Assembly: GCA_937957915.1 (NCBI GenBank)
Contig: CALGNZ010000019.1
Location: 5,262 to 69,261, forward strand
From: an uncultured Granulosicoccaceae bacterium
GTDB lineage: Bacteria; Pseudomonadota; Gammaproteobacteria; Granulosicoccales; Granulosicoccaceae
Length of the DNA: 64,000 nucleotides
Reading direction: 5' to 3'
A model generated the notes under the pieces. That model did not search any database. It worked only from the letters and a program-made list of their open reading frames with translations, and was not told the DNA's origin. Positions within the stretch are counted from its first letter, which is position 1, and the number at the start of each line of letters is the position of its first letter. A program made the position numbers and the translations under genes. Positions 31,787-60,542 of this stretch are shown here, piece after piece.

Positions 31787-32671
31787 ATGCAGCAAGTAGA
31801 AGAAATACAGCGCAACCTTGCTGCCGCCGGCTATATTGCGGATACTGACCTGGCAAGCATTATTCATCTGACGCAGGTTCTAAAGCGCCCGTTGCTTCTG
31901 GAAGGTGACGCCGGCGTAGGTAAAACTGCAGTTGCAGTTGCCCTGTCGCAAATGATGCAACAGGAACTGATACGCCTGCAGTGCTACGAAGGCCTTGATG
32001 CCAGCACTGCCCTTTACGAGTGGAACTATCAACGGCAGTTGATGGCGGTCAGGCTACGAGAAACTGAAAACACTGACGCCGACGCTATCGAAGCAGAGCT
32101 GTTTAGTAAGGAGTATCTTCTACCGCGCCCATTGTTGCAGGCGATAACAACACCCAAACCCTGCGTGTTGCTAATTGATGAGATAGATCGAGCTGATGAT
32201 GAGTTTGAAGCCTTTTTGCTGGAAGTGTTATCGGACTTTCAAATAACGATTCCGGAACTCGGCACTATCAAGGCTCAACACCGTCCAACCGTGCTGCTTA
32301 CCTCCAACGCGACGAGAGATTTAAGCGATGCATTACGCAGACGCTGCCTGTTTCACTTTGTCGATTACCCGGACGCCGAAAAAGAGCTCAATATACTATC
32401 TACACAGTTGCCAGATCTGGATCTGCATCTCGCACGCGCCATCACACGCTTTGTCCAAAAACTCCGTCAGGAAAGCCTGAAGAAAACACCCGGGGTAGCA
32501 GAGACTCTGGATTGGGCTGCTGCATTGATGCATTTGCAAACCGGTGAACTCGAGCAGTCTATGCCACAGATAGAGGCTACATTAGGTTGTCTGCTAAAAA
32601 CACAGCCCGACCGTGAGCTGGCTACTCCAGTCTGGCTGAAACAACTGCTCAATCCGACCAGTGACAGTTGA
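31787..32671 (+). CDS. MoxR-family AAA+ ATPase (CoxD-like)
   Basis: Walker A LEGDAGVGKT, Walker B VLLIDEIDRADDE, and the length and architecture of MoxR/CoxD proteins. Confidence 0.85.
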   Translation: MQQVEEIQRNLAAAGYIADTDLASIIHLTQVLKRPLLLEGDAGVGKTAVAVALSQMMQQELIRLQCYEGLDASTALYEWNYQRQLMAVRLRETENTDADAIEAELFSKEYLLPRPLLQAITTPKPCVLLIDEIDRADDEFEAFLLEVLSDFQITIPELGTIKAQHRPTVLLTSNATRDLSDALRRRCLFHFVDYPDAEKELNILSTQLPDLDLHLARAITRFVQKLRQESLKKTPGVAETLDWAAALMHLQTGELEQSMPQIEATLGCLLKTQPDRELATPVWLKQLLNPTSDS

Positions 32672-35347: not shown

Positions 35348-35773
35348 CTAACTGTCGGCGATGTCGACGATTTCAGTCTCGAAGCTGATATCGACACTCC
35401 CTTCCAGCATTTTGGTGACGGAACAATACTTTTCAACTGACAGAGCGACCACGCGCTCTACCTGTTTGGTCGAGAGGTTCCGGCCCTCGATAACAAACTT
35501 CAGCGCCACCCTGGTGAACACAGCCGGAACCGCATCAGCACGATCGGCCTCCACCAGCACCTGGCAGTCTGTAACATCCTGACGCGCTTTTTTTAACATC
35601 AGGATAACATCGATAGACGAACACCCGCCAAGCCCAAGCAGCACCATTTCCATGGGACGCACGCCCAGGTCCCGGCCGCCATGCTCGACCGACCCATCCA
35701 TCACAACACTGTGGCCACTGCCAGACTCGCCGACGAAGCTCAGGTTATCGAGCCATTTCACTCTTGACTGCAT
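35348..35773 (-). CDS. OsmC family peroxiredoxin-like protein
   Basis: OsmC-like pattern (GGRDLGVRPMEMVLLGLGGCSSIDV ... SVEKYCSVTKML). The ATG at 35773 gives about 141 aa. It is adjacent to vfr/crp, as in Pseudomonas. Confidence 0.8.
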   Translation of the reverse strand: MQSRVKWLDNLSFVGESGSGHSVVMDGSVEHGGRDLGVRPMEMVLLGLGGCSSIDVILMLKKARQDVTDCQVLVEADRADAVPAVFTRVALKFVIEGRNLSTKQVERVVALSVEKYCSVTKMLEGSVDISFETEIVDIADS

Positions 35774-36130
35774 GCGGTGTATCTCGTTTGGATGACAGAT
35801 AGCGTAACGCGGACAGGCAATACACGCCAGCGGAGACCAATTCGTCAGCAGACCATCACTGCTTTCACATATGACGGCAGGAAATTCGCGTCGTTCTTCC
35901 GTACTCGCCGAAGTCGTCAAATAATTTTGTACTGCTAAAAGTGCGGACGAAGTCACATTCACATCGAATTTTAACCACTGCGGCCAGTTATTCCCTTTCT
36001 TGAGAGCATTCCTGACAGTTCAAGTTCACACTTCTTAACATGCAATCAGAACCCAAGTCGCAGTGTGAACAGTTTTTGCTCTATCTCCGTTATCTCGAAG
36101 CCGACAGTGAACAGCCCGGAGAACGGACAC

Positions 36131-43192: not shown

Positions 43193-43574
43193 CTCTCGCG
43201 CTGTATCAGGCGCAATGGGAGACCCTGCGCGCAGAACCACATACCCGCCACGGCAAATCTGTCGTGGCTAAATTACCACAGCAAAATTCTGACACGACAG
43301 TGCTACAAGCATTAGCCACCATCCACTGTGTGGCACAGCTGCAACAGCCATGAAAGCCAGGCACACGCACCAACATCTGACGGCGCAAAACCGAAACACG
43401 AATAAGCACAGAGTGCTCAAACTGTGTGGCTTACACACAACAATGGAAACTCGAATTCGGTAAAAAAAAAGCGCGCCCTTGTAATCTGGACGCTCATACT
43501 TCGTGATAGCATTTGTCACAACATCCAGTAGCGGATGTTGCGATAAAGCACTAGAGTTTGTAGGCGAAGATATT

Positions 43575-44681
43575 ATGTTAACTGCCCCGTCCAGCGTTAC
43601 TGCCGCGTTTGTCGCGCTAATGCTGGTGTTGTTTCTGATTGATTTAGTTACCTCTTTCACTCGACGACACAAAGACTTCCGATCCATTATTGTCAGTGTC
43701 GGTGTACTTGGAACATTCACCGGCGTTTTTATTGGTCTGCTGGGCTTCGACGCTGGCGACATTCGCGGCAGTGTTCCCAGACTGCTCGACGGGATGAAAA
43801 TAGCATTCCTGACCTCGGTGGTCGGCATGGGCTTATCAGTCGCACTGTCGATTCTATATCGATTCATATCCAGCACCAGTGACGATGAAGCTGAAGCACT
43901 GAACGCAATCAGTAGAAAACTCGATGGGCTGAACAAACTCGACAACCTGGAAAAACTGGACACGCTTGACCAGGTAAGTGCTCAGCTAAATGCAGCAGTC
44001 AATGGCATCAGTGACATTCGCGGCGACATGCAGTACTCACGCAGTGAACTCAATGCACATTTCAAGGCCACTCAACATACACTGAACGATGCGCTTGAAA
44101 GAATCTCTCGAAATGCCAGTGAAGAAATAGTCAAATCGCTGGAAACAGTGATCACTGACTTCAACAACAACCTGACCGAACAGTTTGGCGATAACTTTAA
44201 GCAATTGAATGCAGGTATAGCCAACTTGCTTGAGTGGCAGAATCACTACAGAGATACGGTCACAAGCAACACAGAGTTACTGGGTAAAATAACCGAGAGC
44301 CTCGACAGCTCACGCTCTACTCTGGATTCAGTAGCAAGCCGAAACAAAGAAACAATCGAAGTTTATCAAAACCTCGGGGAACTCATTCAAGTACAAAAAC
44401 AGCAATCAGAAATGCTGAAAGCACAAATGAAGGAATACGCTGATCTCAGTCAGCGCGCCACTGCTGCGTTCGCCACTATGCAAACCGGGTTTGGCAATAT
44501 ACAAGCAGGCATGCAAGTACAGTCCGAAGCTGTTGCAACACTTACAACGGATATCAGCAAACAACTTCCGGAAGCCCTCAATGAACTCGAAAACACACTG
44601 ACCGGGTTAACTAATAAATTCGCACGCGACTACCAGTCATTTCTGGAACGCTACCGACTTCTGCTGGTTGATGAAGAATGA
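43575..44681 (+). CDS. MotA/ExbB-family channel protein with long coiled-coil tail (ZorA-like)
   Basis: Three TM segments are present. The last two carry a MotA_ExbB-like signature (GVLGTFTGVFIGLLGF ... LLDGMKIAFLTSVVGMGLSVA). A heptad-rich, Cys-free tail of about 250 aa follows. The stop overlaps the next gene's ATG (ATGA). Confidence 0.6.
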   Translation: MLTAPSSVTAAFVALMLVLFLIDLVTSFTRRHKDFRSIIVSVGVLGTFTGVFIGLLGFDAGDIRGSVPRLLDGMKIAFLTSVVGMGLSVALSILYRFISSTSDDEAEALNAISRKLDGLNKLDNLEKLDTLDQVSAQLNAAVNGISDIRGDMQYSRSELNAHFKATQHTLNDALERISRNASEEIVKSLETVITDFNNNLTEQFGDNFKQLNAGIANLLEWQNHYRDTVTSNTELLGKITESLDSSRSTLDSVASRNKETIEVYQNLGELIQVQKQQSEMLKAQMKEYADLSQRATAAFATMQTGFGNIQAGMQVQSEAVATLTTDISKQLPEALNELENTLTGLTNKFARDYQSFLERYRLLLVDEE

Positions 44682-45373
44682 GAAGTAGCAGCAGTAACGA
44701 ATGGATATCAATCTCGGACATGATGGCCGGACTGATGATGATTTTCCTGTTGATCGCCATTGCTTTCATGTATCAAACCGATCAGGAAAAAAAGGCAATG
44801 GCGAATATTGCCGTCGAATTCGAGCGCTCACGTAATGATCTCAACCAGGCTTTGCGCCACGAGTTTCGCGATGACCTGCCAGTCTGGGGAGCAGAAATTC
44901 TCGATGACAACACGATTCGATTTAATGAGCCACAGGTTCTGTTTGCCCGCAACAGTGCAGAGATTAACGAAAAATTCAAATTGATATTAGACAATTTCTT
45001 CCCGCGTTATCTGACCATACTGGCTCGAGATCAATTTAAATCAGAGATCGATGAGGTGCGCGTTGAGGGCCATACATCGTCTGACTGGCGTGGCACTGAC
45101 AGCAGACAAATCGCCTACATAAAAAATGCAAGGTTGTCGCAAAACCGCTCCTTTTCGGTACTTGACTACATCCATACCATGCAGGCCAGTGACCCCTATC
45201 GTGACTGGCTGCAAAAGGTACTCAGGGCAAACGGACTATCGTCAGCGAAGCCTGTTATAACAGCCTCGGGCACAGAGGACGTCAATCGCAGCAGACGAGT
45301 TGAATTTCGCGTCATCACTAAAACCGAAGAGAGAATCTTTCGCATACTTCGTGAAGCAGAAAACCTGTCGTGA
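44678..45373 (+). CDS. MotB/OmpA-family peptidoglycan-binding protein (ZorB-like)
   Basis: The N-terminal TM has a conserved Asp (WISISDMMAGLMMIFLLIAIAF). The C-terminal OmpA-like domain reads VEGHTSSDW..., NARLSQNRSFSV and NRSRRVEFRV. Confidence 0.68.
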   Translation: MRSSSSNEWISISDMMAGLMMIFLLIAIAFMYQTDQEKKAMANIAVEFERSRNDLNQALRHEFRDDLPVWGAEILDDNTIRFNEPQVLFARNSAEINEKFKLILDNFFPRYLTILARDQFKSEIDEVRVEGHTSSDWRGTDSRQIAYIKNARLSQNRSFSVLDYIHTMQASDPYRDWLQKVLRANGLSSAKPVITASGTEDVNRSRRVEFRVITKTEERIFRILREAENLS

Positions 45374-46212
45374 GGCTTACCCGCTTTTATCGCCTTAAGG
45401 AATCCGTGAGGCAACTTCAGGCCCGTGAGGGTATTAACGGCCTGGCCTTTCGTCTTAAAGAGGAGCCGTTTCGTATCGACCCTGCCGAACTGATATTCGG
45501 CGAAACCGGTATCTTTAACCTGACTGTTTCCGGCGCACTGACCCGCGTTACTCTCTACGATGCTGAACAAAGAGTTGACTCAGATCAATTGGACCCACTC
45601 CTGCGGTCAAATGTTGTCAGTGGCGGGTTCGATAATCTGTCTCTGATCGAACAACTGCCTCGCTTCCATTTTTTATTCTGCGAGCACTTGCAGCAACAAC
45701 ACCGGAACGAATGGCGTGAACCGCACGCGTGGCAGATTTCACATCGCGATAAAAGCCGATTTATATTCAGCTACACCACCCAAAGCGGGGTGTTGTGCGA
45801 TATGGACACACAACGCTTGCTGCCATGCGCTCACTGCACAAAAGCGATGAATGAACTCGGCTACATGAAAGCAGAAATCACTGATTCCGGCCATTTACTA
45901 TCATTGCTCGATAGCAGTGAGTTCTATACCCGGCAAAAGGCCATTCGGCCTTCATCCTGTCCATCTGTGCCGAAGTGTTTCTGGGTTGACTGGCGTCACT
46001 TAGCCACGCGATGCCGATCCATTTCAAAGCGTTGCGCTAACTCACACTCGGGAACAGCTGATTGCGATAGCACAGGCCAGAGCACACACTATTCACACTG
46101 TGATATCACTCACAAAAATTTTCACTACCTGACCAACCTCTGCCACCCTTGCCATCAACAAAAGCCAGGACATGAACATCTGCGTCTGGCCGAGCCCGCA
46201 GAGTTGCTATAG
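45370..46212 (+). CDS. Cys/His-rich protein with C-terminal HNH-like signature (ZorE-like candidate)
   Basis: The GTG start overlaps the upstream stop (GTGA). The C-terminus STHYSHCDITHKNFHYLTNLCHPCHQQKPGH resembles the H-N-(N)L-C-x2-CH-x-H layout of HNH nucleases but is atypical. The N-terminal 200 aa are unassigned. Confidence 0.45.
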   Translation: MRLTRFYRLKESVRQLQAREGINGLAFRLKEEPFRIDPAELIFGETGIFNLTVSGALTRVTLYDAEQRVDSDQLDPLLRSNVVSGGFDNLSLIEQLPRFHFLFCEHLQQQHRNEWREPHAWQISHRDKSRFIFSYTTQSGVLCDMDTQRLLPCAHCTKAMNELGYMKAEITDSGHLLSLLDSSEFYTRQKAIRPSSCPSVPKCFWVDWRHLATRCRSISKRCANSHSGTADCDSTGQSTHYSHCDITHKNFHYLTNLCHPCHQQKPGHEHLRLAEPAELL

Positions 46213-46489
46213 GAAAGTGCGCCCGGGCGAGCGGCGCGCTGTCTTACAGCTAACAACTTCATGACACACCCCGCCGGGGGCCTTCATTTTAAACAACCAA
46301 AACCCGGGCAAAAACAACATACTGTCCGGCACACCTGCATCCACAAATTGGCATCACAGAGACCACCGTTTCATTTGCTAACCGCATCACCGAACCGCAT
46401 AGCTGCCGCTATATGCATTGTCAAAAACTGTCGACTCAAATCCTGCGGACTCAGAGCAGACAGTGCAAGCTAACGGAGCAATCTGGCTT

Positions 46490-47809
46490 ATGCAACACAA
46501 TCCTCGAAGAGAAACATTCGAATCTCCGGAGATATCAAATACTTCCAGCCTGGTAGTAAATCTGGATCACTGGTGCAGCGCCGCTAATGACGACTCCATA
46601 CAGTGCTTTTTGAAAACAACGCTGCAATCCATGATTAGCGGGCAGTCACGTGAACTGCATATCGAGCAGGAAACAGAATTCTGCCGAGTCAGAATCAGAA
46701 TCAATGGCCGACTGACCGAGCAAAAATTTTACAATCCCGATTTCGCCACTGAATTGCTGACCGCCATCAATCAGGAAAGTAACGGCAAAAATCCGCACGC
46801 ACGGAGGCCGGGCGATACAGGAAACAACGGGGTGGATTCTGACAACGCCGGAGCAGTCAACGCAGCAAACGACGAATTCGGCAGTCTGACCATTCCGGTA
46901 CAAATAGACGGGGAAAAATGTGACCTCAACATTTGCCGCTACGACACTATTAGCGGTAAATGCTTAACACTTTCTGTTAGCGCGGCGAGCACCATTCCTG
47001 AAGTTCTTGAGCAAACGCGACTGGACACTGCCACCAAACAGGATATCAGGCACCACTATAGTTCAATGCCAGTCAAAGGCATCACTATGATATGCAGCCA
47101 CTCTGATGATCTGCTGCGTTCTGTATACTATGCCCTGCTTGGCGAGGTGAACAACGTCGAGCGTAAAATCGTGTCCCTTCAGAACAACATAGACAAGCAG
47201 GTACCACGAGTTAGTCAGATATTGGCAAATGGCAATGCAAACCAATCGGGCAATAAGCGCAGCCTGCTAACAGCGGTATCTACTGTAACCCGGCTGTCTG
47301 ATCATGTGTTCGTCGACTGGGAAACCGCCTGCGACGAAGGCATCATCAACGCACTGCAAAGTAACGCACAATCCACTCTGTTCTGGCGGGGTAATGTTAG
47401 CAGCGGACTACTACAGTTGTTCTCGGCTGAGAATTTACGCTTAAATCTGCATACAATAATTGAACTAGAGGATACCGCTTTAATATGTCCGCACTGCGCA
47501 GAAACCTATAAGCCCGGAAAACTCGATTTCAAACGGTTACCTGAAACGATGTCAGACCAGAAATCCGGGTCCTTCTTCTTTGCCAACGGATGCGATCGTT
47601 GTGACGACACGGGTGTATCGTCACTTGCCACGGTCACTTCAATGTGTAAGGGAACAGACGCCATCAGAGAAGCACTGGCTAACCGGTCCCTGCAGGCAAC
47701 TGAACAAGCGCTTGCAAGTGCACAAGGCCGCACATCAATCCGGCTACAACTGGAAGCACTGGCAAAAACCGGGAAAATCAGTTTCGAAGACTGGATAGGT
47801 CAACAATAG
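46490..47809 (+). CDS. GspE/PilB-fold protein lacking all ATPase motifs (pseudo-ATPase)
   Basis: It is collinear with T2SS/T4P ATPases: ELHIEQETEFCRVRIRINGRLTEQ vs DIHIEP..VR.RIDG.L, and the tetra-Cys site is retained (CPHC...CDRC). The catalytic motifs are replaced: Walker A by CSHSDDLL, the Asp box by QNNID, Walker B by HVFVDWETACD, and the His box by STLFWRGNVSS. Confidence 0.55.
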   Translation: MQHNPRRETFESPEISNTSSLVVNLDHWCSAANDDSIQCFLKTTLQSMISGQSRELHIEQETEFCRVRIRINGRLTEQKFYNPDFATELLTAINQESNGKNPHARRPGDTGNNGVDSDNAGAVNAANDEFGSLTIPVQIDGEKCDLNICRYDTISGKCLTLSVSAASTIPEVLEQTRLDTATKQDIRHHYSSMPVKGITMICSHSDDLLRSVYYALLGEVNNVERKIVSLQNNIDKQVPRVSQILANGNANQSGNKRSLLTAVSTVTRLSDHVFVDWETACDEGIINALQSNAQSTLFWRGNVSSGLLQLFSAENLRLNLHTIIELEDTALICPHCAETYKPGKLDFKRLPETMSDQKSGSFFFANGCDRCDDTGVSSLATVTSMCKGTDAIREALANRSLQATEQALASAQGRTSIRLQLEALAKTGKISFEDWIGQQ

Positions 47810-47994: not shown

Positions 47995-49311
47995 TTATAC
48001 CGCAACGTTCTGACGAGTAACCTCGGGCACCACCGTATTTTTCCGCTCCTTTCGACCAGCGTTTATATCTACCACATTGTCAAAAGTAGCCTGCAAGTGT
48101 GTTTTGTATTTTTCACCGCACCAGTTAACACCCAGAGCACTTTTAGCGTTGGTGATACCGGTATAGATGCTTCCATTAAGTTGAGTAGTTGCAATTAGAT
48201 AATTTCTATATGCCGTGTACTTGCTTACATCAACCTTCTCTGGATTCTGCCAGAATGACTCCAGCGAACCCTGATGAGTGAGTCCGGGCAAATCGTAGAT
48301 TGCTTTACCCATCGCTTTCACCGGTGTCTGATGATACATGGAAGAGATACCAACCGTGCTGTTAATTAAAACGGCACCCTCTGCACGCTGCAAAAGACGA
48401 GGCAGATCAGTATCGTGAATGTAGTGCACCCGACCTTTTAACCCGTAATCACCGGCCAGGCGCTCAATCAGTTTCCGATAATTCTTGTAGCCACGATCAT
48501 AGGGGTGATGCTTGAATGCAATAGAAGTATTTTCATCTGCAGTAGAAAACGAAATCAACACTCTATCTATAAACTCTTCGACGCTTCCAAAATCTGAGTG
48601 CTGAATAACCTGCATGTCGTTGTGTACCTGCAGCGGCACCAGGAAAAATCTATTTTTCCCTTTCAGCAGTTTTCTACTGGTTTGATACTCAGTGAATTTA
48701 TATAACCACTTCCTCCACCCGGATCTAATCCAGATAGAACCTTCTGACAGCGTTTTCAGAGGACGATGATGAACATAATTTGGAAAACGCCACCGTAACG
48801 CTGAAGAGGCCATATAGTATTTCATAGCAAGACAAGCTGCCTTGAAAAATACACTTTTGACCGGCTGCGACGATTTACTGGTCTCGGTCGTTGAATCCGC
48901 ACGGGCCTCCAGCTGCGTGTTAACGGTATCGGGGTCACAGGCACTGGAAAACCCGTTTACTCCATCGCGCTCAAGCGTAATGTAATTGGGCCTGACATAG
49001 CCTTCCTCAAAAACATAGACTTCAATGTTCAGGCGTCTCGCGATGGTAATGGCCTGTCGATGATAGCTTCGGCAGTCGCCAAACAGATAGATGCGGTCAA
49101 TCTGACGCCCGACCATGACCGATTCGATCCAGTACGGCCACACCACCGCATCTTCCCGAAAATTAAGCACGCTGCCGCTGTGGTAAAAAAGCCAGTCACC
49201 GCCATTGAGATTGACCTTGACTACGTTGTGCCCATGCTGCTCCAGATCTGTAGCCAGATTCCTAAAAAACGGGCCAACAGGTCCCTGTAACAGCAGCACA
49301 TTACGCGGCAT
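47995..49311 (-). CDS. kpsS: capsule polysaccharide export/beta-Kdo transferase KpsS
   Basis: The N-terminus VLLLQGPVGPFFRNLATDLEQHGHNVVKVNLNGGD is typical of KpsS. It lies downstream of and overlapping kpsC. Confidence 0.82.
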   Translation of the reverse strand: MPRNVLLLQGPVGPFFRNLATDLEQHGHNVVKVNLNGGDWLFYHSGSVLNFREDAVVWPYWIESVMVGRQIDRIYLFGDCRSYHRQAITIARRLNIEVYVFEEGYVRPNYITLERDGVNGFSSACDPDTVNTQLEARADSTTETSKSSQPVKSVFFKAACLAMKYYMASSALRWRFPNYVHHRPLKTLSEGSIWIRSGWRKWLYKFTEYQTSRKLLKGKNRFFLVPLQVHNDMQVIQHSDFGSVEEFIDRVLISFSTADENTSIAFKHHPYDRGYKNYRKLIERLAGDYGLKGRVHYIHDTDLPRLLQRAEGAVLINSTVGISSMYHQTPVKAMGKAIYDLPGLTHQGSLESFWQNPEKVDVSKYTAYRNYLIATTQLNGSIYTGITNAKSALGVNWCGEKYKTHLQATFDNVVDINAGRKERKNTVVPEVTRQNVAV

Positions 49312-51364
49312 AAGTAAGGCCTTTTTTTATGTTGCGAACAATGTTCACGTATTTCCTGATTCCAGCTTCAGTAATCGGCGACGTCGCAGCATGTTTTTCC
49401 GACAGAAGCGCTTTGACCGTTTGCTCCACACTGACGTGCTCACCAGACGCAATATCCAGATAAGCCGGATAACGTATATAACTGATAAAAATCAGTTCAT
49501 CCAGCGTACGTCTTCGACTGCGACGAGCAAATTCACATCGATCGGTTGTCAACCCCCAACCGGCGTAAAACGGTCTACCGTATGTAACGACACGCTTGTT
49601 GTAAAGTAGTGCTTCAACCCCGGCCAGAGAACTTATTGTATGAACTTCGTCACACTGTTGGAGCACAACATCAATTGGCAGCTCTGTTTCGATACGATCA
49701 CACAGCGTCAGTAATTCACAGTTTTTATCGATTCCATCAGATCTGTTACCACTGACCACATCCGGGTGGGGTTTATACACAACGATCGCGTCCGGATTCA
49801 ACTGCCTCACCGCTTTAATCAGACCTAGATTGCTGCGTGCTGCGCCTGACCCAAAACGCAATGACGCATCGCCGTCGACCTGCCCTACCACCAGCAAAGC
49901 CTGCTTACCCTGATAATAGGTACAATCAAACGTACCATCTGATGGTCTCGTGTATTTACTGATTCGCTCTCGGAGCAACACATGCATCAATTGACGTGCA
50001 CGGTGCAAATCAATATCGCTGCAATTGTAGAGTTCAAGCAGAGACTCCAGTTTCGATGGTCCTGTCGCATCGAAATATATCCCCTCAGCGTCAATCACCA
50101 GAGACCTCGGTGCCGTAAAGTTACTGCCAAGGCCAACCGACCGCACAAAGCCATCCTCCATGCGAGTTATTTGGTGCCGCTGCAGCGCCTGCTCCACCTT
50201 AGACTCTGGTGGCTTTCTGCCCCAAACCAGAACTTGAGCGGGTTCCCGCTGAGTGCTGTCCCATCGCAAAAACTGCGATACTGACAAATGTTTGTGATTG
50301 TAATCGGAGTTAAACAGGTAGCGATCAATGTATCGTCTTTTCCACGGTGTAATTCCCACGCAAACAAGACGCCCCCCTACCCTTTCCCTTTGTTCAATTT
50401 GCACTTCAATGTGATCAACAATGGTTGCGAGATCACACAAGCTGTTTGTAACCGGATCAACATAGGTCGGGTAGATCAGGTAGGCCGCGACAAACAACTG
50501 GCTCAGCGATCTGGTTTGTACACGTCGTGCGAGTGGCTGGCGATCTTCAGTTAGCCCCCAACCCGCATAAAATGGCTGTCCGTGACAGACAACGCGGGCC
50601 CCTCGCATCAGCACCTCGAGCCCATACAGAGAGGTGCCAACATGTACGCTGTCACAGGCGTTCAGCTGCGCCTGGCTGATGTCTCCGGTTACCAGCGTAA
50701 GACCAAGTTGTTGTGCGCGATCGACAAGGTAGCCACGCTTCCTGCCAGCCAGCACCTGCGGATGCACTTTGACAACAACTTTTTCTTGCGGATAGCGACT
50801 CAGGACGTCACTGAGCATCTCGTCAAATGCCAAAGCATTCATGCCACCCAGACGCACTGACTGATCTCCAACTGTTTGATCAACGATCAGTGCAAAGTCT
50901 GTGAGAGAACCAAGATCCGCCGACTGTTCAGGCAGGTGATTGTATTTACTGATTCCAGCCTTGACCAGACGTGCCATCAATTCGCCAGCGGCACCGACCA
51001 TACCCGGATCGTCGAGCTTCCAGGACTCCGCATCTACACCATTTAGCAGGTTTTCAAGCCTTGAGGGGCAAGTCGCGTCGTAGTAAATACCAATATTATC
51101 GGTGACGATTGAGTATTTACGATTAGACGCATGCTTGCCTAGCGAGCAGATAAATCCGTCCTCGAGGCGGATATGCGGCAGCGCAAATTGAGTAGCTATC
51201 CGCAGCGCTCTGGCACTGTACGGTTTAGAGCCCCATGAGTACACCCCAGCACAATTGTCGCCGAACAATTGCAAGGGACTACGGGATAGACTGGAGAGAC
51301 CCAGAAAAGTCTCTATACGGTTTATTCTCCCGATACCTGACGATAGGGTAAACCCGGATTTCAC
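49301..51364 (-). CDS. kpsC: capsule polysaccharide modification protein KpsC (tandem beta-Kdo transferase domains)
   Basis: About 690 aa with an internally duplicated Capsule_synth-like module (two copies of PFYAGWGLT). It is paired with kpsS. Confidence 0.85.
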   Translation of the reverse strand: MKSGFTLSSGIGRINRIETFLGLSSLSRSPLQLFGDNCAGVYSWGSKPYSARALRIATQFALPHIRLEDGFICSLGKHASNRKYSIVTDNIGIYYDATCPSRLENLLNGVDAESWKLDDPGMVGAAGELMARLVKAGISKYNHLPEQSADLGSLTDFALIVDQTVGDQSVRLGGMNALAFDEMLSDVLSRYPQEKVVVKVHPQVLAGRKRGYLVDRAQQLGLTLVTGDISQAQLNACDSVHVGTSLYGLEVLMRGARVVCHGQPFYAGWGLTEDRQPLARRVQTRSLSQLFVAAYLIYPTYVDPVTNSLCDLATIVDHIEVQIEQRERVGGRLVCVGITPWKRRYIDRYLFNSDYNHKHLSVSQFLRWDSTQREPAQVLVWGRKPPESKVEQALQRHQITRMEDGFVRSVGLGSNFTAPRSLVIDAEGIYFDATGPSKLESLLELYNCSDIDLHRARQLMHVLLRERISKYTRPSDGTFDCTYYQGKQALLVVGQVDGDASLRFGSGAARSNLGLIKAVRQLNPDAIVVYKPHPDVVSGNRSDGIDKNCELLTLCDRIETELPIDVVLQQCDEVHTISSLAGVEALLYNKRVVTYGRPFYAGWGLTTDRCEFARRSRRRTLDELIFISYIRYPAYLDIASGEHVSVEQTVKALLSEKHAATSPITEAGIRKYVNIVRNIKKGLTYAA

Positions 51365-51373
51365 AACCGCACT

Positions 51374-52000
51374 CTACCGAACCAGGTTAATAGCAAGACA
51401 CGTCATTACCAGGCATATCGCACTATCTATTGCCAGGGGCTTCCAGTTTTCACGCATCAACACGACAAGCTGCTGCAGTGATGACAGGCGTTCAAACTCA
51501 CCGCTGGCTGCATCATTTGCTGCAAAAGTATCGGGTACTGATTCTGTGCTCGTGGCTTGCGACGGCACAACACTGGAATCTGCAGCGTCATCATTCATTA
51601 GCAGATGCAATTGCCTGATCACCGATGCACCATGATCGTCCGGACTTTGCCTGGCCGCCTGACCCACTACAGTGAGCAATCCGCCGCTAATGCCGTTTTC
51701 GCGTGCCACTTTTTGCAGGGTGGTTATTTCTTCCTGCAGCTTAACGAGTTCAGCTAAAGTCTCGCCACAGTGCTTTCTTTTATCTTCGTTGTTGCCACCA
51801 TACTCGACCTTGTCCAGATTTATAGTATCGAGCAGGAAATCATGATCCAGATGGTCTGTGGTAGTCGCTGCGTCAACGATGTACCTGTTCAACATTACCC
51901 TGTCGATGCCGCAGTCGATCAACGACACCTTGCCATTTTGCAGACTGGTGACCAGCGTCGTGTAATCTTGAATCAGCGAGGGGCATTGCGCCGCAGCCAT
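51374..52000 (-). CDS. hypothetical protein with C-terminal hydrophobic anchor
   Basis: ORF only, with no recognisable motif. The C-terminus is WKPLAIDSAICLVMTCLAINLV. It ends 10 nt upstream of kpsC. The start is uncertain (ATG at 52000 or GTG at 52063). Confidence 0.4.
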   Translation of the reverse strand: MAAAQCPSLIQDYTTLVTSLQNGKVSLIDCGIDRVMLNRYIVDAATTTDHLDHDFLLDTINLDKVEYGGNNEDKRKHCGETLAELVKLQEEITTLQKVARENGISGGLLTVVGQAARQSPDDHGASVIRQLHLLMNDDAADSSVVPSQATSTESVPDTFAANDAASGEFERLSSLQQLVVLMRENWKPLAIDSAICLVMTCLAINLVR

Positions 52001-52197
52001 TGATTTTCCGGGGGTTCGTATCCGACCAGACTGAGCAGTAAACGCGCCATCGGCAGGCGGCACTGTGTGGGTAGCTTCCTATGCTGCCAACTCCGTTCGA
52101 TACTATCTGCCCGGCACTTGAATTCGCCTCGGAAGCTCGTCGCGGATCAACTGCGGCAACCAAACATTATGTATCGAGTGCCCAACCAATCGGCCAT

Positions 52198-53391
52198 TCA
52201 ACCATTCACCCGCCTCGCTGTGCGATACAGCGTCAATCCGATGACAACAAAAATCAATAAGCAACCAAGCAGCGACTGATATCCTCCGACAGACCAGACC
52301 ACTGCTCCGAAAAACGGCGACACAGCAGAACCCAGTAAGTAAAAGAGTGCCAGTAAACCACTTTTTGAACCAAATGCATCGCTGCCCAGTATTTCACGGG
52401 CGATAAGGGGCCGAATGACACTGACAATCCCGTAGCCACTACCAAACAGCACAACAAACGGTAGTGCGAGTGCGTCAATCCAGTGGGTTGCAAGCAGCAG
52501 CATCATCGCCATTGCCAACGCTATAAAACAACATACGGCTACAAAATCATTCGTTGTACGCTTGTCCATGGCCATAATGACAATTCTGCCAAATACCTGC
52601 ATTGGCCCTATGATCGACGCAATCAACACAGCCTGGTGAAGCGCCAGGCCGCGTTCAACGAGAATCGGAATCAAGTGATGGAGGGTCGCGCCATGAACCA
52701 CTGCTAACAGCGCAAAAGCAACCGCAAGTAACACAAACCGGGGCGTTAACAATCGCCGGAACTGTACAGCCTGGCTGGCATTAACACGGCTTACATCCGC
52801 TGCCGCTTCCAGTCGCGTTGCACCAACCCATAGTAACGGTGCTGCTACTGTTATTGCGACAATGCCGCAAACATTCACGGCTATGCGCCACCCGTAAATA
52901 TCGGCCAGCCAGTGTGCCGCAGGAAAGCTGATAGTACTGGCGAAACCCGCAATCAATGTAATCGTAATAATACTGCTTTTGGCGTCCGCACCGTATGCTC
53001 GCGTCACAAGTGAAAAGCACGGTTCATACAAACAACCAGCCATGGCACAACCGACTATGGCGCTGAGTGCCATAAAGTGCCAGGGCACAACAACTTGCGA
53101 CAACAGAAAAATCGCAACACCGCCCAGACAACAGCTGCCTGCCATAAGCACTGCACCTCGGCCTCGATCAATCATTCGACCTGCCAGCGGAGAAAAACAG
53201 GCCGACATCAACAGTGCCAAAGAAATAGCAATAGTAAGCAACGTTTTCGACCAGCCCAGGCTTTGCTCCCAGCGGAGCAAAAGCGCAGGAAACACATACA
53301 GCAAACTTGCCCACGCCATGGTCTGTCCTGCAGCCATAGCAAGAACACCTGGTTTAATCATTGTCGCTTTACCATAGTCTACGGATACCAC
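52198..53391 (-). CDS. MFS transporter
   Basis: About 12 predicted TM segments with MFS-like loop motifs (GRMIDRGRG). The start may be the internal MIKPG. Confidence 0.8.
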   Translation of the reverse strand: MVSVDYGKATMIKPGVLAMAAGQTMAWASLLYVFPALLLRWEQSLGWSKTLLTIAISLALLMSACFSPLAGRMIDRGRGAVLMAGSCCLGGVAIFLLSQVVVPWHFMALSAIVGCAMAGCLYEPCFSLVTRAYGADAKSSIITITLIAGFASTISFPAAHWLADIYGWRIAVNVCGIVAITVAAPLLWVGATRLEAAADVSRVNASQAVQFRRLLTPRFVLLAVAFALLAVVHGATLHHLIPILVERGLALHQAVLIASIIGPMQVFGRIVIMAMDKRTTNDFVAVCCFIALAMAMMLLLATHWIDALALPFVVLFGSGYGIVSVIRPLIAREILGSDAFGSKSGLLALFYLLGSAVSPFFGAVVWSVGGYQSLLGCLLIFVVIGLTLYRTARRVNG

Positions 53392-53484
53392 ATGTTCAGG
53401 TGCTGTGGCCAGGAGATTACACCTCGGCGAACGGTGCGCGGTCTTACCACCACAGCATTACCAAAATATTTGATCCGAAAAAGC

Positions 53485-53529
53485 AGGGTGTCGGTGAGCG
53501 ATGCGAACCGCACAAAACCTATGGGTGCC
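53485..53529 (+). repeat. interspersed intergenic element, copy B (core)
   Basis: AGGGTGTCGGTGAGCGATGCGAACCGCACAAAACCTATGGGTGCC. Weaker collinear similarity to copy A extends over 53466-53608. Confidence 0.7.
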
Positions 53530-53750
53530 AGCAGCATTCTAAGATTAAACGCGGGAGAGCAACAGCAAACACTTTGCGTTTCTTATCTGCTCATCCGTCT
53601 TACCGGGTCACTCACATTTGTATGCGCCGAAAATTCTTAAACAAAAAACATACGTTTCTAATTAAGTTAGATGAAAGGCTGACCAAAAGATCGCACCCGC
53701 AGCAGAACATTCATTCTATTTGATTTTTCTGAATGCGACAGTAATCAACA

Positions 53751-54737
53751 TCAATGGCTGACGTGTAAAGACCGTGTGTTTTTTTCAATGCGCTGCAGTA
53801 GTGTTTGACGAAGTTTCACCTCTGCAGGCCAATTGTGCGCGGGAGAAATCGGCTCTCTGTCATAGCTGTGATTTTGCGTTGGTACCCTCTCCGAAAAACC
53901 GGCGACCAAACCATCCTTCCCTGTCACATCAATATATTTTTCAAGACAGGACAGCAACAACAAACCCGCAGATGGAGAGGCACCCAATTGCTCGACGAGC
54001 GAGCACCAAAGGTTCCTCGGAACGGTATGTATGCCAACGTACGATGGACGATCTTCAAATCGCCGCCAGACCTTGCTACGACGGTAAAATATCGAATTAC
54101 CAGTAATAATCAGATGCCTGCCGGGCACTTGCTGTGCAGATCTCCACGACGGTGTAACAACGTGCACATCAGCGTCCCCCTCAATGCGAGCGTTGAGATG
54201 ATAGTTATTAAAACAGATTGACAGGTGATCTTCGCGAAGCGATATTCTGTCATCAACATCTGCCGCAGGCGCATTGCCAATAACCGAAAAACCACTTTTC
54301 ACATTTACCAGATCCGCCAATCGGCTCAGGAGAGCAGTGTCAGGTAATGTTTGACTGACACCAACAGAGCCTGAATATTTTTCCTGCAAATAATCAAGAC
54401 ATTGGCTGCCCCCTCTGCTGAGGCGCGGACAGGCAAGGCCAGTCCCGCGGCAATATAGCATCAGCATAGAAAACCACTTCATTTCTCTGGATGCTCTGCC
54501 GGTGCCTCTGAGCAGATCGCGAGCTTTATCGGCCTCCCCCAACTGAAGATAAAGAGAGGCCGCATAATAGACCAGTGCCTTACCGGAACACCGTCGCGAG
54601 AGCACTGCAGCCACGATATCGTCGAGAGTCTGACTGTCAAAACAACCGGAATAGGCCATTTTGTCAAGTGCCCTCAGTTGAGAGCCACCAAGGTATTCGC
54701 GGATATTCACGGCTTTTGCCAGCTGCACATTGGCCAC
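53751..54737 (-). CDS. sialyltransferase-fold (GT29/GT42-like) glycosyltransferase
   Basis: FSVIGNAPAA..., SICFNNYH and GASPSAGLLLL resemble the GNGPS / (C)N / SG motifs of bacterial sialyl- and Kdo-type transferases. This is inferred from motif resemblance only. Confidence 0.45.
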   Translation of the reverse strand: MANVQLAKAVNIREYLGGSQLRALDKMAYSGCFDSQTLDDIVAAVLSRRCSGKALVYYAASLYLQLGEADKARDLLRGTGRASREMKWFSMLMLYCRGTGLACPRLSRGGSQCLDYLQEKYSGSVGVSQTLPDTALLSRLADLVNVKSGFSVIGNAPAADVDDRISLREDHLSICFNNYHLNARIEGDADVHVVTPSWRSAQQVPGRHLIITGNSIFYRRSKVWRRFEDRPSYVGIHTVPRNLWCSLVEQLGASPSAGLLLLSCLEKYIDVTGKDGLVAGFSERVPTQNHSYDREPISPAHNWPAEVKLRQTLLQRIEKNTRSLHVSH

Positions 54738-54831
54738 AGAAACTCACTGTCCAGAGGGCTCATCCTGCATAGCCTTGTGTACCTCAACGTACCCACCGCA
54801 TCGATGTGCGCTCGATTACAGCCCATGCCTT

Positions 54832-55839
54832 CTATGATGCACGTCGATGTTCAGGGTCGACATCAATCGCCCTTACAGGCTCAGGGAACAAAGCGGCAAC
54901 CGCACTGCTACCGGGCAGTGTCGAATCCTTGAAGAACGCCCGCGGATCTTCCATAAGCTTGCGTGCCTTGCGTCGGGTCAACACCGTAGTATTCGCCACC
55001 TTGCGCCTCCATAATTGTTGCCACAATACCCCCGTACGAACAACCGGATCCGTGCCACAACTATCATTCACACAGCTTGCACTGGTATCGACCAGACTCT
55101 CAGTCATCGCGGACTGCAGCGCGTAACGGGTATTCTCAACTGAAAAAATACCTTCCATATCTGGCACAGGCTTATTTGTTTTCTGGTGAGGTAATATCAT
55201 TCTGCAACAGTTCAACCGGGCAATCGCTGTGTGCAGCGCCGGAAAAACGGGATTGTTCGAATAAACATCTCCGGCAATCAAACTGCATGGTACACCAATC
55301 ATAGCCGCATCAAGAGCTCTGGCTGTATCTACAAACACAACGTGCGCTGCATTTCTGTACAAACACAAAAGTGAAGCGGCACACCACCAGCGAGGACTGA
55401 TTACATTGAACTTCACCGATAGCATGTCGCATATCTCTTTTAGTCGGGTCGAATACTGATCGGATAACAAAACGACGTTTGCTTTCGCGGGGTTTTTCAA
55501 GCAATGTTTTTCTATCTCTACTGTCAGAGCCAACTCAAGACCTGTCCACCAGAATTGACAGTCCACTATCAGTGTTTCCGCCGAAACTTCCACAGCAACG
55601 GGGTACCCCAACGCTTCATAGACAGCGTCGAGCGATTCAAACCGAGGGCTGGGAAACTCATTGATGCCGGACGAACCATCAACGCCAATCAGCGCTATTT
55701 GGTTGAACAACATCGACCCCGGGTACAGGGGCATACAACTGATGTTGCGATTTTTGACCGCAGTGATTTGCTTTACACCACGATTGATCTCACACCGTTG
55801 ATGCCGCTCCCAGTCACCGGCTCTGCACGAAACAATCAC
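54832..55839 (-). CDS. putative capsule biosynthesis protein
   Basis: The GTG start overlaps the upstream stop. The C-terminal RRKARKLMEDPRAFFKDS resembles the tail motif recurrent in capsule polymer-synthesis proteins. Otherwise it is unassigned. Confidence 0.4.
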   Translation of the reverse strand: MIVSCRAGDWERHQRCEINRGVKQITAVKNRNISCMPLYPGSMLFNQIALIGVDGSSGINEFPSPRFESLDAVYEALGYPVAVEVSAETLIVDCQFWWTGLELALTVEIEKHCLKNPAKANVVLLSDQYSTRLKEICDMLSVKFNVISPRWWCAASLLCLYRNAAHVVFVDTARALDAAMIGVPCSLIAGDVYSNNPVFPALHTAIARLNCCRMILPHQKTNKPVPDMEGIFSVENTRYALQSAMTESLVDTSASCVNDSCGTDPVVRTGVLWQQLWRRKVANTTVLTRRKARKLMEDPRAFFKDSTLPGSSAVAALFPEPVRAIDVDPEHRRAS

Positions 55840-56876
55840 GCCGCGGCACTCAGCATCTTCTGCAAAACCGGCAATCTGGCTTGCACCGAGTAACTTTGCT
55901 TTAAACGCTCACTACTGGAGTTATCAAACCCGGACTGGTCGTTTGCACAATGCAGCAGCATTGCCGGCCAATCCGCCTCATCTTTAACCAACAGGGACAT
56001 TGGATTCTGATGATCACGCATATCGCCGTTCTCAGTCGCGAGAATCGGGGTTCCCACTGATACAGATTCAATAAGCTTTACTGCCGACTTTGCATCGTTA
56101 AAAACATTTGCCTGCAAAGGTGCAATTGAGAGGTCGACCTGTGCCAACTGTTCCAGGTACTGGCTGTAATCAACAAATGATTTGAATGTAACCTGTTGCG
56201 ACGAGAATGGCAGGCTCTCAGGCTCCATCCGCCCCATCACCACCAGTTTACTGTCGGGCATTGCCGTGAAAAGACCGGCCAGCGCACCACGAATCATCTC
56301 CACATCGTGCGAATGACTGTTACTGCCAGGGAAGTATCCGATAGTAAATCTTTTGTTAGAGACTGCACGCTTTTGCGGCGCCTGAAAAAGGCGCGGCAAT
56401 GAGTTGGGTAAAATGGTTACTGACATTTGAGGCCGTGATGACAGCACATGTTTTGCCAAAGCCCCTGTCGATACTACAATACTTTCAAAGCACTGCATCG
56501 CTTGCCGGTTGTCCGAGAAGTATGCCTCAACTTTATCAAGAGGCCTGTTTCCATTGATGTACAGCGGACTACTCGACGCCAGCGCAGTATCAAATATGAG
56601 GTCATCGTAGTCGGCATGCAACACTACATCACAGCGCCGACACAGCTCAATTGCCTTTGCAAACCTGCCGGTGAACTTGGGTCGATGAAAAATAACATGT
56701 CGAAACTGCCGCACCAATAATTCGCTCAAACGGTCTATATGAACAACCTGGCTTATCCATGAATCTGCGACCAGCGCGTCCGCATAGTGATAACATCGGT
56801 GCCTGGCAGACGGATCATTCCAGGCATTTTGACCGTATCGGGTATCAGTAACATACAGCACGCTCGATAGATTCAT
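55836..56876 (-). CDS. GT-B fold glycosyltransferase
   Basis: Assigned from size, capsule context, and a C-terminal GT1/GT4-like segment (SVGTPILATENGDM). Confidence 0.55.
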   Translation of the reverse strand: MNLSSVLYVTDTRYGQNAWNDPSARHRCYHYADALVADSWISQVVHIDRLSELLVRQFRHVIFHRPKFTGRFAKAIELCRRCDVVLHADYDDLIFDTALASSSPLYINGNRPLDKVEAYFSDNRQAMQCFESIVVSTGALAKHVLSSRPQMSVTILPNSLPRLFQAPQKRAVSNKRFTIGYFPGSNSHSHDVEMIRGALAGLFTAMPDSKLVVMGRMEPESLPFSSQQVTFKSFVDYSQYLEQLAQVDLSIAPLQANVFNDAKSAVKLIESVSVGTPILATENGDMRDHQNPMSLLVKDEADWPAMLLHCANDQSGFDNSSSERLKQSYSVQARLPVLQKMLSAAA

Positions 56877-56920
56877 CGATCAGGCCACCGCTATACCGAA
56901 ACAGCCCGTCACCGTTACAC

Positions 56921-57895
56921 CTACCCTATTATCAACGGACTGTTCGGTAGTTCAAATGATCCATCATGTGTCCGAACTGATATGATATCACCTGCTGCAA
57001 CACGACCCAGTTTATCAAGTGGTATTTCAAACCCGCAGTTACCATTAATGTGTATACCCTTACGCTGAATATCCGCACGAAACATATCAGCTGTATAGTC
57101 AAACTTTCGTTTACCATTCACCATCACTCTGAGCTTTGCGGGTTTGTCGCTCTCCCGATCCACGGTCCAGCCAATCATTTTTTCATTTCGAACACCGCCA
57201 AGATAACCACTGTAGCGCGGGACAGTCGCCAGTGCCGGGCGGACACTATCGTCCTGACTATCAAAGTGCTCGACTGCCTGCTGATAGAGTTTTACATCGT
57301 CCTGATTGAGCAACTGAATTTCCTCTATCTCTTCATCGGTAGCACGATGGGCGTCTTTCTCGTAGTTACCCCGGTTCAGGTTTGCCATCGGGAAATTCGT
57401 GCTATAGCGCTGATTAAATTTGAGCAGGCTCTCTTCATAGTTTTCAGTGAGACCGTAGAAATCCAGGTCAATCGGATTTGCACCCGACAGCACTCGAGAC
57501 TGTCTATTGCGGAACTGATCCTTGCGATAAAACTCTCTCAGTGAACCCTCGAATCCGTAGTGCGTGGTAAAATGAACGTACTCAGAGATTACCCGCTTAA
57601 CCGGATCGCGGAAGAAGGTCACCACCGGTGAATCCGGAAAGTGCTCTCGATACTTCGCCAGCGAAAAATGACCGGTAAAGAATTTTTTCTGTGTTACCTT
57701 CGAATACAGTAGTTCAAAATCCTTTTTTTCATAGAACGCAGTCTTTATCTCCTCAGAAGTTGCCGGAGAATTCTCACCATAGTCCTTAACAACATTCCAT
57801 GGGCCAAAATAATGCTCCGCACTAATCCGAAAGCTGGTACCCGCAGTTTTCGGGATATGCAGGCAAATTATCGGGAGACTCATCTTTTCACTCAT
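56921..57895 (-). CDS. sulfotransferase family protein
   Basis: N-terminal PAPS 5'-phosphosulfate-binding motif ICLHIPKTAGTSF and a downstream RDPVKRVISEY (3'-PB-like). An extra C-terminal domain of about 100 aa is present. Confidence 0.8.
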   Translation of the reverse strand: MSEKMSLPIICLHIPKTAGTSFRISAEHYFGPWNVVKDYGENSPATSEEIKTAFYEKKDFELLYSKVTQKKFFTGHFSLAKYREHFPDSPVVTFFRDPVKRVISEYVHFTTHYGFEGSLREFYRKDQFRNRQSRVLSGANPIDLDFYGLTENYEESLLKFNQRYSTNFPMANLNRGNYEKDAHRATDEEIEEIQLLNQDDVKLYQQAVEHFDSQDDSVRPALATVPRYSGYLGGVRNEKMIGWTVDRESDKPAKLRVMVNGKRKFDYTADMFRADIQRKGIHINGNCGFEIPLDKLGRVAAGDIISVRTHDGSFELPNSPLIIG

Positions 57896-57955
57896 GTCTG
57901 TCTAACTATTTATCAAGCACACTAATAATAATTCTGACTAGCAATCAGCCGAACT

Positions 57956-60268: not shown

Positions 60269-60542
60269 CCGGCCTATCTGTTGGCACTGACAGCGTTCTT
60301 TCCCGACACCCGATATCCCCGCGTGGAAACTCAGGTCTGGAGTCCTGCTGCCCTCGGGCTTGAACCCGATTTATTATTGTTAATCCCTGGTATTGCCGCT
60401 ATCCATGCGCGCTCATCACGCCACAGTAACGTCGCAATCTCCTTGCCGAGCAGACACGATGCAGTCCACAGAGACACACATCGTTAGTAAATTGATCGAA
60501 GAGTGCGGATCAGGCCAGATAGACGGAGTATCCGGCCAGGAC

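Follow-up and report, generated by a model that had tools for sequence, protein, structure and literature searches.

We looked into a gene on the forward strand of a 64-kb stretch of DNA from an uncultured Granulosicoccaceae bacterium; the whole stretch is called the window here, and the gene occupies its positions 46490 to 47809. The encoded protein is related to GspE and PilB, the ATPases that assemble type II secretion systems and type IV pili. It is followed by a group-2-type capsule locus and preceded by a Zorya-like operon, and the rest of the window holds housekeeping genes. We consider it very probable that the gene encodes a conserved dead ATPase, kept by selection, that is not a component of the Zorya system. 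The features of the gene and of the region directly upstream of it are the following.

46403..46412 (+): conserved upstream box CTGCCGCTAT, the sole conserved element of the 278-bp intergenic region, resembling a sigma-28 -10 element
46490..47809 (+): coding sequence of the GspE/PilB-like pseudo-ATPase, with an N2 domain and a C-terminal RecA-like domain that carries a zinc subdomain, and with no N1 domain
46583..46984 (+): N2-like domain, residues 32 to 165, aligned to the N2 domains of EpsE and PilF and containing a conserved block, ELHIEQE..CRVRIRINGRLTE
46796..46870 (+): insertion HARRPGDTGNNGVDSDNAGAV (about 20 residues, predicted to be disordered) at the arginine-finger loop position
46865..46891 (+): degenerate arginine-finger loop, RLPQDGR in active enzymes and ANDEFGS here
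47078..47119 (+): degenerate Walker A, GITMICSHSDDLLR in place of GxxLVTGPTGSGKT (GPTGSGKTT replaced by CSHSDDLLR)
47168..47197 (+): degenerate Asp box, IVSLQNNIDK in place of ILTVEDPIEY (VEDPIE replaced by LQNNID)
47291..47335 (+): degenerate Walker B, RLSDHVFVDWETACD in place of LRQDPDVILVGEIRD (PDVILIGE replaced by DHVFVDWE)
47354..47401 (+): degenerate His box, LQSNAQSTLFWRGNVS in place of ALTGHLVLSTLHTNDA
47486..47602 (+): tetracysteine zinc subdomain, C333-P-H-C336 ... C368-D-R-C371 (CxxC-X31-CxxC)

The protein and its degenerate nucleotide site

The open reading frame (ORF) runs from an ATG at 46490 to a stop codon ending at 47809 and encodes 439 amino acids. Because the homologues begin at the same initiator Met, we took ATG 46490 as the start and regarded the upstream TTG at 46418 as unlikely. 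The GC content of the gene (about 0.49) is like that of its flanks, and its composition gives no sign of foreign origin. The protein matched the Pfam family T2SSE (PF00437) at 38.2 bits, above the gathering score of 24.9, with residues 32 to 431 aligned to profile positions 3 to 364 of 370, while the NCBIfam equivalog models were matched weakly (GspE, 38.5 bits with a cut-off of 630; PilB, 26.7 bits with a cut-off of 676). A search of the PDB with the single 439-residue sequence retrieved PilF, PilB, and GspE at E values of 6e-6 to 5e-3. A profile of nine family members matched Vibrio cholerae EpsE (1P9R) with an E value of 1.8e-13, collinearly over positions 35 to 420, and it aligned collinearly to PilF and PilB as well. 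The original prediction, which had been made from the sequence alone and had described the protein as a GspE/PilB relative collinear with the type II secretion and type IV pilus ATPases, is borne out by these matches and by the fold comparison given below. The sequence blocks that it quoted were all found where it had placed them in the 439-residue protein, among them ELHIEQETEFCRVRIRINGRLTEQ (residues 55 to 78) and IDGEKCDL...GKCLTL (residues 139 to 161).

Within the N2 block, R66, R68, and E77 were invariant in 22/22 orthologues. The N1/MshEN domain, which in assembly ATPases docks to GspL or binds cyclic di-GMP (c-di-GMP), is absent: the protein begins about 30 residues before N2, and its active relatives are 530 to 600 residues long and carry PF05157.

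We then compared the motifs in an alignment of 82 sequences (alignment A3), made up of 20 degenerate relatives and 62 active ATPases. Walker A, the Asp box, Walker B, and the His box were all replaced, as had been predicted, and the loss of the arginine loop in N2 came in addition to the motifs listed at that time. At the Walker A position neither the Gly-rich loop nor the Lys is left, and Trp277 stands where Walker B has its catalytic Glu. The core of the His box, TGHxVLSTLHTN in active enzymes, has become SNAQSTLFWRGN (SNAQSTLFWRG at TGHxVxSTLHT), with both His residues gone; the register given for this box in the original prediction was about two residues off, which is immaterial to the replacement. 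No intact Walker A or Walker B was found elsewhere in the 439-residue protein. The insertion, which precedes or replaces the arginine-finger loop, was absent from all homologues, being confined to the window allele and its 99% identical relatives. With Walker A, the Asp box, the Walker B Glu, the His box, and the arginine fingers replaced, the protein is predicted to be unable to work as a P-loop nucleoside triphosphatase (NTPase).

The tetracysteine motif that the prediction had described is present at the DNA positions quoted there, with CPHC at residues 333 to 336 (DNA 47486 to 47497) and CDRC at residues 368 to 371 (DNA 47591 to 47602). C333, C336, C368, and C371 are the only invariant columns across all 82 degenerate and active sequences. 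A tetracysteine subdomain is typical of assembly ATPases and not of retraction ATPases. In EpsE, a CxxC-X29-CxxC motif coordinates zinc and is essential, and its role is mechanistically unclear (PMC5061722); the tetracysteine site of the present protein would be expected to bind zinc as well.

An AlphaFold (AF2) model built on the 82-sequence alignment reached a pLDDT of 88.7 and a pTM of 0.87, and its only low-confidence parts were the N-terminal 14 residues and the insertion at residues 112 to 126 (pLDDT < 50 in the insertion). Given just nine close homologues, AF2 returned an unusable model (pLDDT 46). When the model was compared with the PDB by Foldseek, as the original prediction had proposed, the top matches were PilB 5TSH (G. 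metallireducens), PilF 5IT5/5OIU (T. thermophilus), and EpsE 1P9R (E values of 2e-24 to 4e-23, TM scores of 0.67 to 0.77, about 415 columns), followed by PilT, PilU, and DotB at about 1e-12. The model thus supports retention of the two-domain fold of N2 and RecA-like domains. By sequence and fold, the protein is a member of the T2SSE superfamily, but it has none of the catalytic features and scores below the equivalog cut-offs, and therefore it does not belong under the name GspE, PilB, or TadA.

Conservation, genomic position, and upstream box

A word-indexed search found 14 close homologues with 44 to 62% identity, and an exhaustive profile search found 12 representatives below an E value of 1e-30, followed by a sharp fall to ordinary ATPases (about 100 bits). 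All homologues are intact ORFs of 388 to 457 residues, in more than 15 lineages, with no frameshifts or stops, and this intactness persists through divergence at which synonymous sites are saturated. The ratio of nonsynonymous to synonymous divergence (dN/dS, by Nei-Gojobori) was 0.15 to 0.19 at dS values of 0.26 to 0.59. For the neighboring genes, it was 0.02 to 0.13, and the dN of the gene was 3 to 10 times theirs. The ratio was even along the protein (0.14 to 0.22 for the N2, former catalytic, and zinc/C-terminal thirds), which indicates that the degenerate core is still constrained. Moreover, 12 residues, including the four Cys, were invariant in 22 orthologues at about 20% identity. These results indicate that purifying selection keeps the whole protein, though it evolves several times faster than its neighbors; a frameshifted pseudogene, one of the outcomes that the original prediction had named as fatal to it, is not what we found.

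A local hot spot of divergence was seen between strains, where the gene (L004, 3334 to 4602; L008, 10001 to 11269) shares 85 to 94% of its nucleotides and the flanks share 97 to 98%. Its dS there was 0.27, about three times that of the flanks (0.07 to 0.12), which suggests recombination or a locally raised or diversifying rate of change.

A genome scan placed the close relatives in metagenome-assembled genomes (MAGs) of uncultured Granulosicoccaceae, a family of marine bacteria. A search for a cultured or named organism with the gene found none; all members come from metagenomes or MAGs. The order shared by the close homologues is crp, trpCDGE, fumarase, zorA-zorB-zorE-like genes, the pseudo-ATPase gene, and kpsS-kpsC. 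In lineages L012 and L013 (30 to 32% identity), the gene lies between fumarase and kpsS/kpsC without Zorya genes, and in L010 it follows fumarase, again without Zorya genes, on a contig that ends at the gene; L011, sister to L012, has the Zorya genes. The deeper relatives P0031, P0032, P0038, P0058, P0080, and P0123 (17 to 24% identity) are positional orthologues, placed between the fumarase side and kpsS/kpsC, with LysR, cytochrome c, rpe, RimK-like, and DNA_alkylation genes and small ORFs intercalated and with no Zorya genes. One relative, P0026 (L024), adjoins purK/purE instead. Counted by locus, fumarase and kpsS/C are present without zorABE in L012, L013, L023, L026, and L029/L030, and a single flank on the contig, also without zorABE, is present in L010, L027, and L028. 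The gene is a vertically inherited, single-copy gene of the Granulosicoccaceae and related gammaproteobacteria that occupies a fixed place.

Three small conserved ORFs (72 to 82 residues) lie directly downstream of the gene in deeper loci (L023, 11351 to 12359; L026, 7992 to 8956; L028, 3632 to 4564; all on the reverse strand) and have a RimK-like ATP-grasp gene after them. The clade of the window has none of the three, and the small ORFs neighboring the deeper orthologues had no Pfam matches.

In a neighbor-joining tree, which was crude and rooted at the midpoint, all pseudo-ATPase orthologues fell on one side and the active ATPases on the other. A partial P-loop (GPLDSGKK, GPAGSHKK, or GPSGSQKK) survives in the deeper orthologues, from which the His box and the Walker B Glu have already gone; their score against the GspE equivalog, about 165 bits, is slightly higher than that against PilB. 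Given the partial P-loops and the one-sided tree, the sequences form one old orthologous group in which the nucleotide site was lost stepwise. One of the deeper orthologues (P0058, MCB1754100.1; L026, 6662 to 7969), whose His box and Walker B are degenerate, bears the NCBI name "Flp pilus assembly complex ATPase component TadA," probably a misannotation that extends to the whole clade as an enzyme.

Directly upstream of the gene and on the same strand lies the following operon.

43503-46212 (+): type II Zorya-like operon with matches to ZorA2, ZorB2, and ZorE (NCBIfam, PADLOC)

The ZorA2-like protein, at 368 to 392 residues, is short relative to the PADLOC ZorA2 models of 420 to 590 positions; ZorB2 has 231 residues (PADLOC E value of 1.6e-89), and the ZorE-like HNH protein has 280 residues (E value of 1.2e-11). 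The Zorya genes are under strong purifying selection (dN/dS of 0.02 to 0.10). The operon occurs at the same chromosomal site in several Granulosicoccaceae lineages and is absent in the sister lineages L010, L012, and L013, which makes Zorya a presence/absence polymorphism, with fumarase on one side and the promoter box of the following gene on the other. Apparent deletions in zorE and kpsS at L003 fall on a stretch of N in the scaffold and were not interpreted. One could read the pseudo-ATPase as a fourth, accessory component or effector of this zorA-zorB-zorE system, given that it lies directly downstream of zorE with a gap of 62 to 278 bp in the Zorya-bearing lineages and evolves fast, as many defense genes do. 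However, at least eight lineages have the orthologue at the same locus without zorABE, the upstream box described below also occurs in Zorya-less genomes, and the divergence pattern of the gene differs from that of the Zorya genes, its dN/dS of 0.15 to 0.19 exceeding theirs. PADLOC returned no Zorya or other defense model for the protein beyond a chance-level match to DrmMII (E value of 0.034). The accessory reading is largely refuted by the co-occurrence data, and we hold it to be highly improbable. The adjacency on which the original prediction had remarked is real, but the link is incidental, as orthologues stand at the same place without Zorya (L010, L012, L013, L023, and L026 to L030). 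With no PADLOC match, occurrence without Zorya, and a box of its own, the gene is transcriptionally and phylogenetically independent of Zorya.

The box contains the 9-mer CTGCCG(A/C)TA at 46403 to 46411, between the zorE stop (46212) and the start of the gene. The same 9-mer stands 39 to 94 nucleotides upstream of the orthologue in L001 to L013, L023, and L025, with near matches in L026, L028, and L029; its chance expectation is about one occurrence per 64 kb, both strands counted. The rest of the 278-bp intergenic region cannot be aligned among lineages, and the box is conserved where the protein has diverged to about 20% identity. The box would mark a promoter of the gene's own. The sequence GCCGATAA is the -10 consensus of sigma-28 (FliA), as in the P. 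aeruginosa fliC promoter, TCTAAAG-N14-GCCGATAA (PMC12784957). Exact matches to it were found in L010 to L013 and L023, and matches at 7/8 positions were found in L005, L025, L026, and L028. When a -35 element (TCTAAAG) was sought 14 to 15 nucleotides upstream of the -10, both elements fitted in L010 (TCCAAAG-N15-GCCGATAA), L023 (TCTAAGT-N14-GCCGATAA), and L026 (CCTAAGC-N14-GCCGATAT). The window and its nearest clades have GCCGCTAT or GCCGCTAC at the -10, with a C at -11, the base that is flipped out on melting.

Other readings of the upstream region were also tried. An apparent CTGCCG...CGGCAG inverted repeat is not supported as an RNA element; RNAalifold gave no consensus structure in the 5' region. 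Rfam had no match in the whole window at gathering thresholds or in the intergenic region at E values up to 1, and a scan for generic sigma-70 promoters and terminators was uninformative, its matches being at or below the shuffle expectation.

Possible roles of the pseudo-ATPase

Taken as a whole, the data are best explained by a pseudoenzyme that descends from a GspE/PilB-type assembly ATPase and serves as a noncatalytic binding or regulatory module, an explanation that we consider reasonably probable. The protein would then act by binding and not by catalysis, as a zinc-stabilized regulatory or adaptor subunit. Its most likely target would be a machine of the cell itself, of the type IV pilus or type II secretion type. 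There it might either assemble together with the active hexameric ATPase or its platform or compete with them, as dominant-negative ATPase mutants do, and its expression might be tied to the flagellar sigma-28 regulon. In Granulosicoccus genomes, type IV pilus genes number up to 17 and flagella are encoded as well (PMC9238374), so that the family does possess a cognate machine. Moreover, EpsE variants that are inactive are dominant negative over the wild type (PMC5061722). That the protein acts on a pilus or secretion machine is nevertheless a tentative proposal, and the roles of scaffold, sensor, or decoy that the original prediction had suggested are speculative.

We compared the protein with the systems that it most resembles. 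It shares with GspE/EpsE of V. cholerae (1P9R, 4KSR) its best profile match, the fold, and the CxxC...CxxC zinc subdomain, and the less degenerate orthologues score slightly better against GspE models than against PilB models; it differs from GspE in lacking N1, in having all catalytic motifs replaced, in its equivalog score (38.5 versus 630 bits), and in having no gsp genes nearby. PilB (5TSH) and PilF (5IT5/5OIU) are its best structural matches (E value of 2e-24) and have the same zinc motif, but the identity is only 14 to 17%, the catalytic motifs and MshEN/N1 are missing here, and no pilC, pilM, or pilin genes lie nearby. M. xanthus PilB offers a parallel in that a PilB fold has a regulatory output without ATP hydrolysis (PMC5544727), and the pseudo-ATPase gene adjoins a polysaccharide capsule locus; M. 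xanthus PilB is, however, an active motor with c-di-GMP-binding N-terminal domains, whereas the pseudo-ATPase is predicted to be unable to bind nucleotide. Engineered dominant-negative variants of GspE or PilB, altered at the zinc or nucleotide site, are likewise inactive, keep the fold, and interfere with the machine (PMC5061722). Those variants are point mutants of the machine's own ATPase that keep N1 and the interfaces, whereas the present protein is a diverged paralogue at about 15 to 20% identity. Type II Zorya (ZorA-ZorB-ZorE) is a physical neighbor on the same strand, of which the pseudo-ATPase is no member.

Several findings weigh against action on a pilus or secretion machine or against parts of this scheme. 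No pil or gsp, platform, pilin, or secretin genes were found within 10 kb of the orthologues of about 15 lineages, among called genes with Pfam hits and where the contigs extend that far. The N1 domain through which GspE docks to GspL is absent, so canonical GspL docking is impossible, and assembly together with active subunits may be impossible without the nucleotide and arginine-finger contacts, now lost, that keep hexamer interfaces together. The AF2 alignment includes active ATPases, which favors the canonical fold. As for expression, the -10 of the window (GCCGCTAT) matches at 6/8 positions and has C at -11, no convincing -35 element was found in the window, L008, or L006, and the combined -35/-10 pattern has a background of about two matches per 64 kb and is not significant alone, significance attaching only to its positional conservation. 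Because of the C at -11 and the missing -35 element, sigma-28 dependence of the window allele is doubtful; sigma-28 control is a reasonable lead for the family, and for this particular genome we would put it no higher than a tentative suggestion, more doubtful than the choice of target. Finally, this is the fastest-evolving gene of its neighborhood, with 17 to 59% identity where fumarase has 77 to 95% and KpsS has 46 to 83%. In the closest pairs, nonsynonymous (N) changes exceeded synonymous (S) ones: the window and L001 differ by 6N:2S in the gene and by 3N:17S in the pooled neighbors (Fisher test, P value = 0.005), and the window and L002 differ by 6N:1S in the gene and by 1N:11S in the neighbors (Fisher test, P value = 0.002). 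Such an excess would also fit weak constraint.

The original prediction had stated that no other secretion or pilus genes lie in the window. This holds for most ORFs of at least 180 residues; among those that were scanned (all but 35348 to 35962, 54832 to 55839, 55836 to 56876, and 56921 to 57895), there were no pilus or secretion genes besides a TolC-like OEP gene (3525 to 4835) and the capsule export genes. Elsewhere in the window, a MoxR-like AAA ATPase gene (294 residues) is followed by a gene for a VWA CoxE-like protein (399 residues) at 31787 to 33860 (+), a typical chaperone pair that is unrelated to the pseudo-ATPase, and the region 17083 to 21307 (-), downstream of fmt and rsmB, encodes a DUF4390 protein, a histidine kinase with HAMP and PAS domains, and a response regulator that is sigma-54 dependent.

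The main specific rival to action on a pilus or secretion machine ties the protein to the adjacent capsule (kps) locus, the features of which are the following.

47995-63980 (-): group-2-type capsule locus, with kpsS (47995-49311), kpsC (49301-51364), an MFS transporter gene, and glycosyltransferase genes
57956-60268 (-): 770-residue double GT2 protein, in the capsule locus
60543-62300 (-): KpsD-like Poly_export/SLBB protein, in the capsule locus
62227-63315 (-): probable KpsE, with no Pfam match
63312-63980 (-): KpsT-like ABC ATPase, in the capsule locus

A conserved ORF of 229 residues (51374 to 52063, reverse strand) lies between kpsC and the MFS gene and is present in all related loci at 42 to 79% identity; no family was found for it, the only match being a subthreshold one to HD_4 (E value of 0.09).

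The pseudo-ATPase might, for example, regulate capsule synthesis or export or serve as an adaptor there, in analogy to the signaling of PilB to exopolysaccharide (EPS) production. In 11 of the 12 lineages in which the flank is long enough, kpsS is 0.2 to 2.3 kb away from the gene, the upstream side of which has been rearranged repeatedly (Zorya, LysR, cytochromes c, rpe, and a 112-residue ORF). ATPase-deficient M. xanthus PilB supports EPS, and its nucleotide-free form is the proposed signaling state (PMC5544727), a state in which a protein unable to bind nucleotide would by analogy be locked. On the other hand, the gene is transcribed convergently with kpsS and therefore does not form one operon with it, deeper lineages have intercalated genes (RimK-like, DNA_alkylation, small ORFs), and P0026 has purK/purE next to it instead. 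The whole crp-trp-fumarase-kps region is, moreover, syntenic in the clade, so that the adjacency may be a matter of inheritance only, and we know of no T2SSE-like component in Kps systems. We regard a capsule-linked role as quite unlikely.

The other rivals are minor. The gene could be the decaying remnant of an earlier secretion or pilus ATPase, a relic without function, and the loss of all catalytic motifs, the fast evolution, the dN/dS of about 1 in the closest pairs, and the disordered insertion unique to the window allele can all be read in this way. A relic would, however, hardly be expected to remain an intact ORF through saturated synonymous divergence, with a dN/dS of 0.14 to 0.22 in every third, 12 invariant residues, and a conserved upstream box, and we consider it improbable. 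Some of the same observations, namely, the fast evolution, the high local divergence, and the nonsynonymous excess in the closest pair, would also suit a decoy or guard for phage inhibitors that target PilB, engaged in an arms race in a neighborhood of phage interaction (Zorya and capsule); phage proteins that bind PilB are reported (PMC8143254). There is no direct evidence for a decoy; dN/dS stays well under 1 for the protein as a whole, and no single region stands out from it. The gene is a syntenic core gene, not one borne on an island, and an identity of about 15 to 20% to the cell's real PilB would make it a poor mimic; such a role is very improbable. That the protein is still an NTPase, or a nucleotide sensor working through a noncanonical site, we find scarcely credible. 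Deeper orthologues do keep the P-loop Lys (GPLDSGKK and GPSGSQKK), and the ancestor probably bound nucleotide, but the clade of the window has no Gly-rich loop, P-loop Lys, Walker B acid, or His-box His, and the substituted positions drift among CSHS, CSQT, CSNS, SSPS, and ICNE, which argues against a new defined site.

Implications for annotation and for the motor family

Annotation pipelines label GspE/PilB-type motors as ATPases by default, with the result that this clade is misannotated as an enzyme. For the annotation of defense systems, the locus is a reminder that a same-strand gene just downstream of a Zorya operon need not belong to the operon. We found no description of a conserved pseudo-ATPase of the GspE/PilB type in the searchable literature, which is absence of evidence only.

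The noncatalytic binding or regulatory module favored here could be a naturally evolved "poison subunit" or adaptor, in which a dead, zinc-stabilized PilB/GspE paralogue made from a sigma-28-type promoter would bind the pilus or secretion motor or platform, or would signal to the capsule locus, and would thereby switch surface structures off or on during swimming. This picture is speculative and, as it stands, unlikely. If it were true, the tetracysteine subdomain of assembly ATPases would serve in interactions independently of ATP hydrolysis.

The orthologue series, from a partial P-loop to full loss, documents a motor ATPase turning into a pseudoenzyme and amounts to a natural experiment on a well-studied motor family. 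The catalytic residues have drifted, whereas the four Cys and the fold have been kept, which argues that the role of the metal subdomain, structural or in interaction, is separable from ATP turnover.

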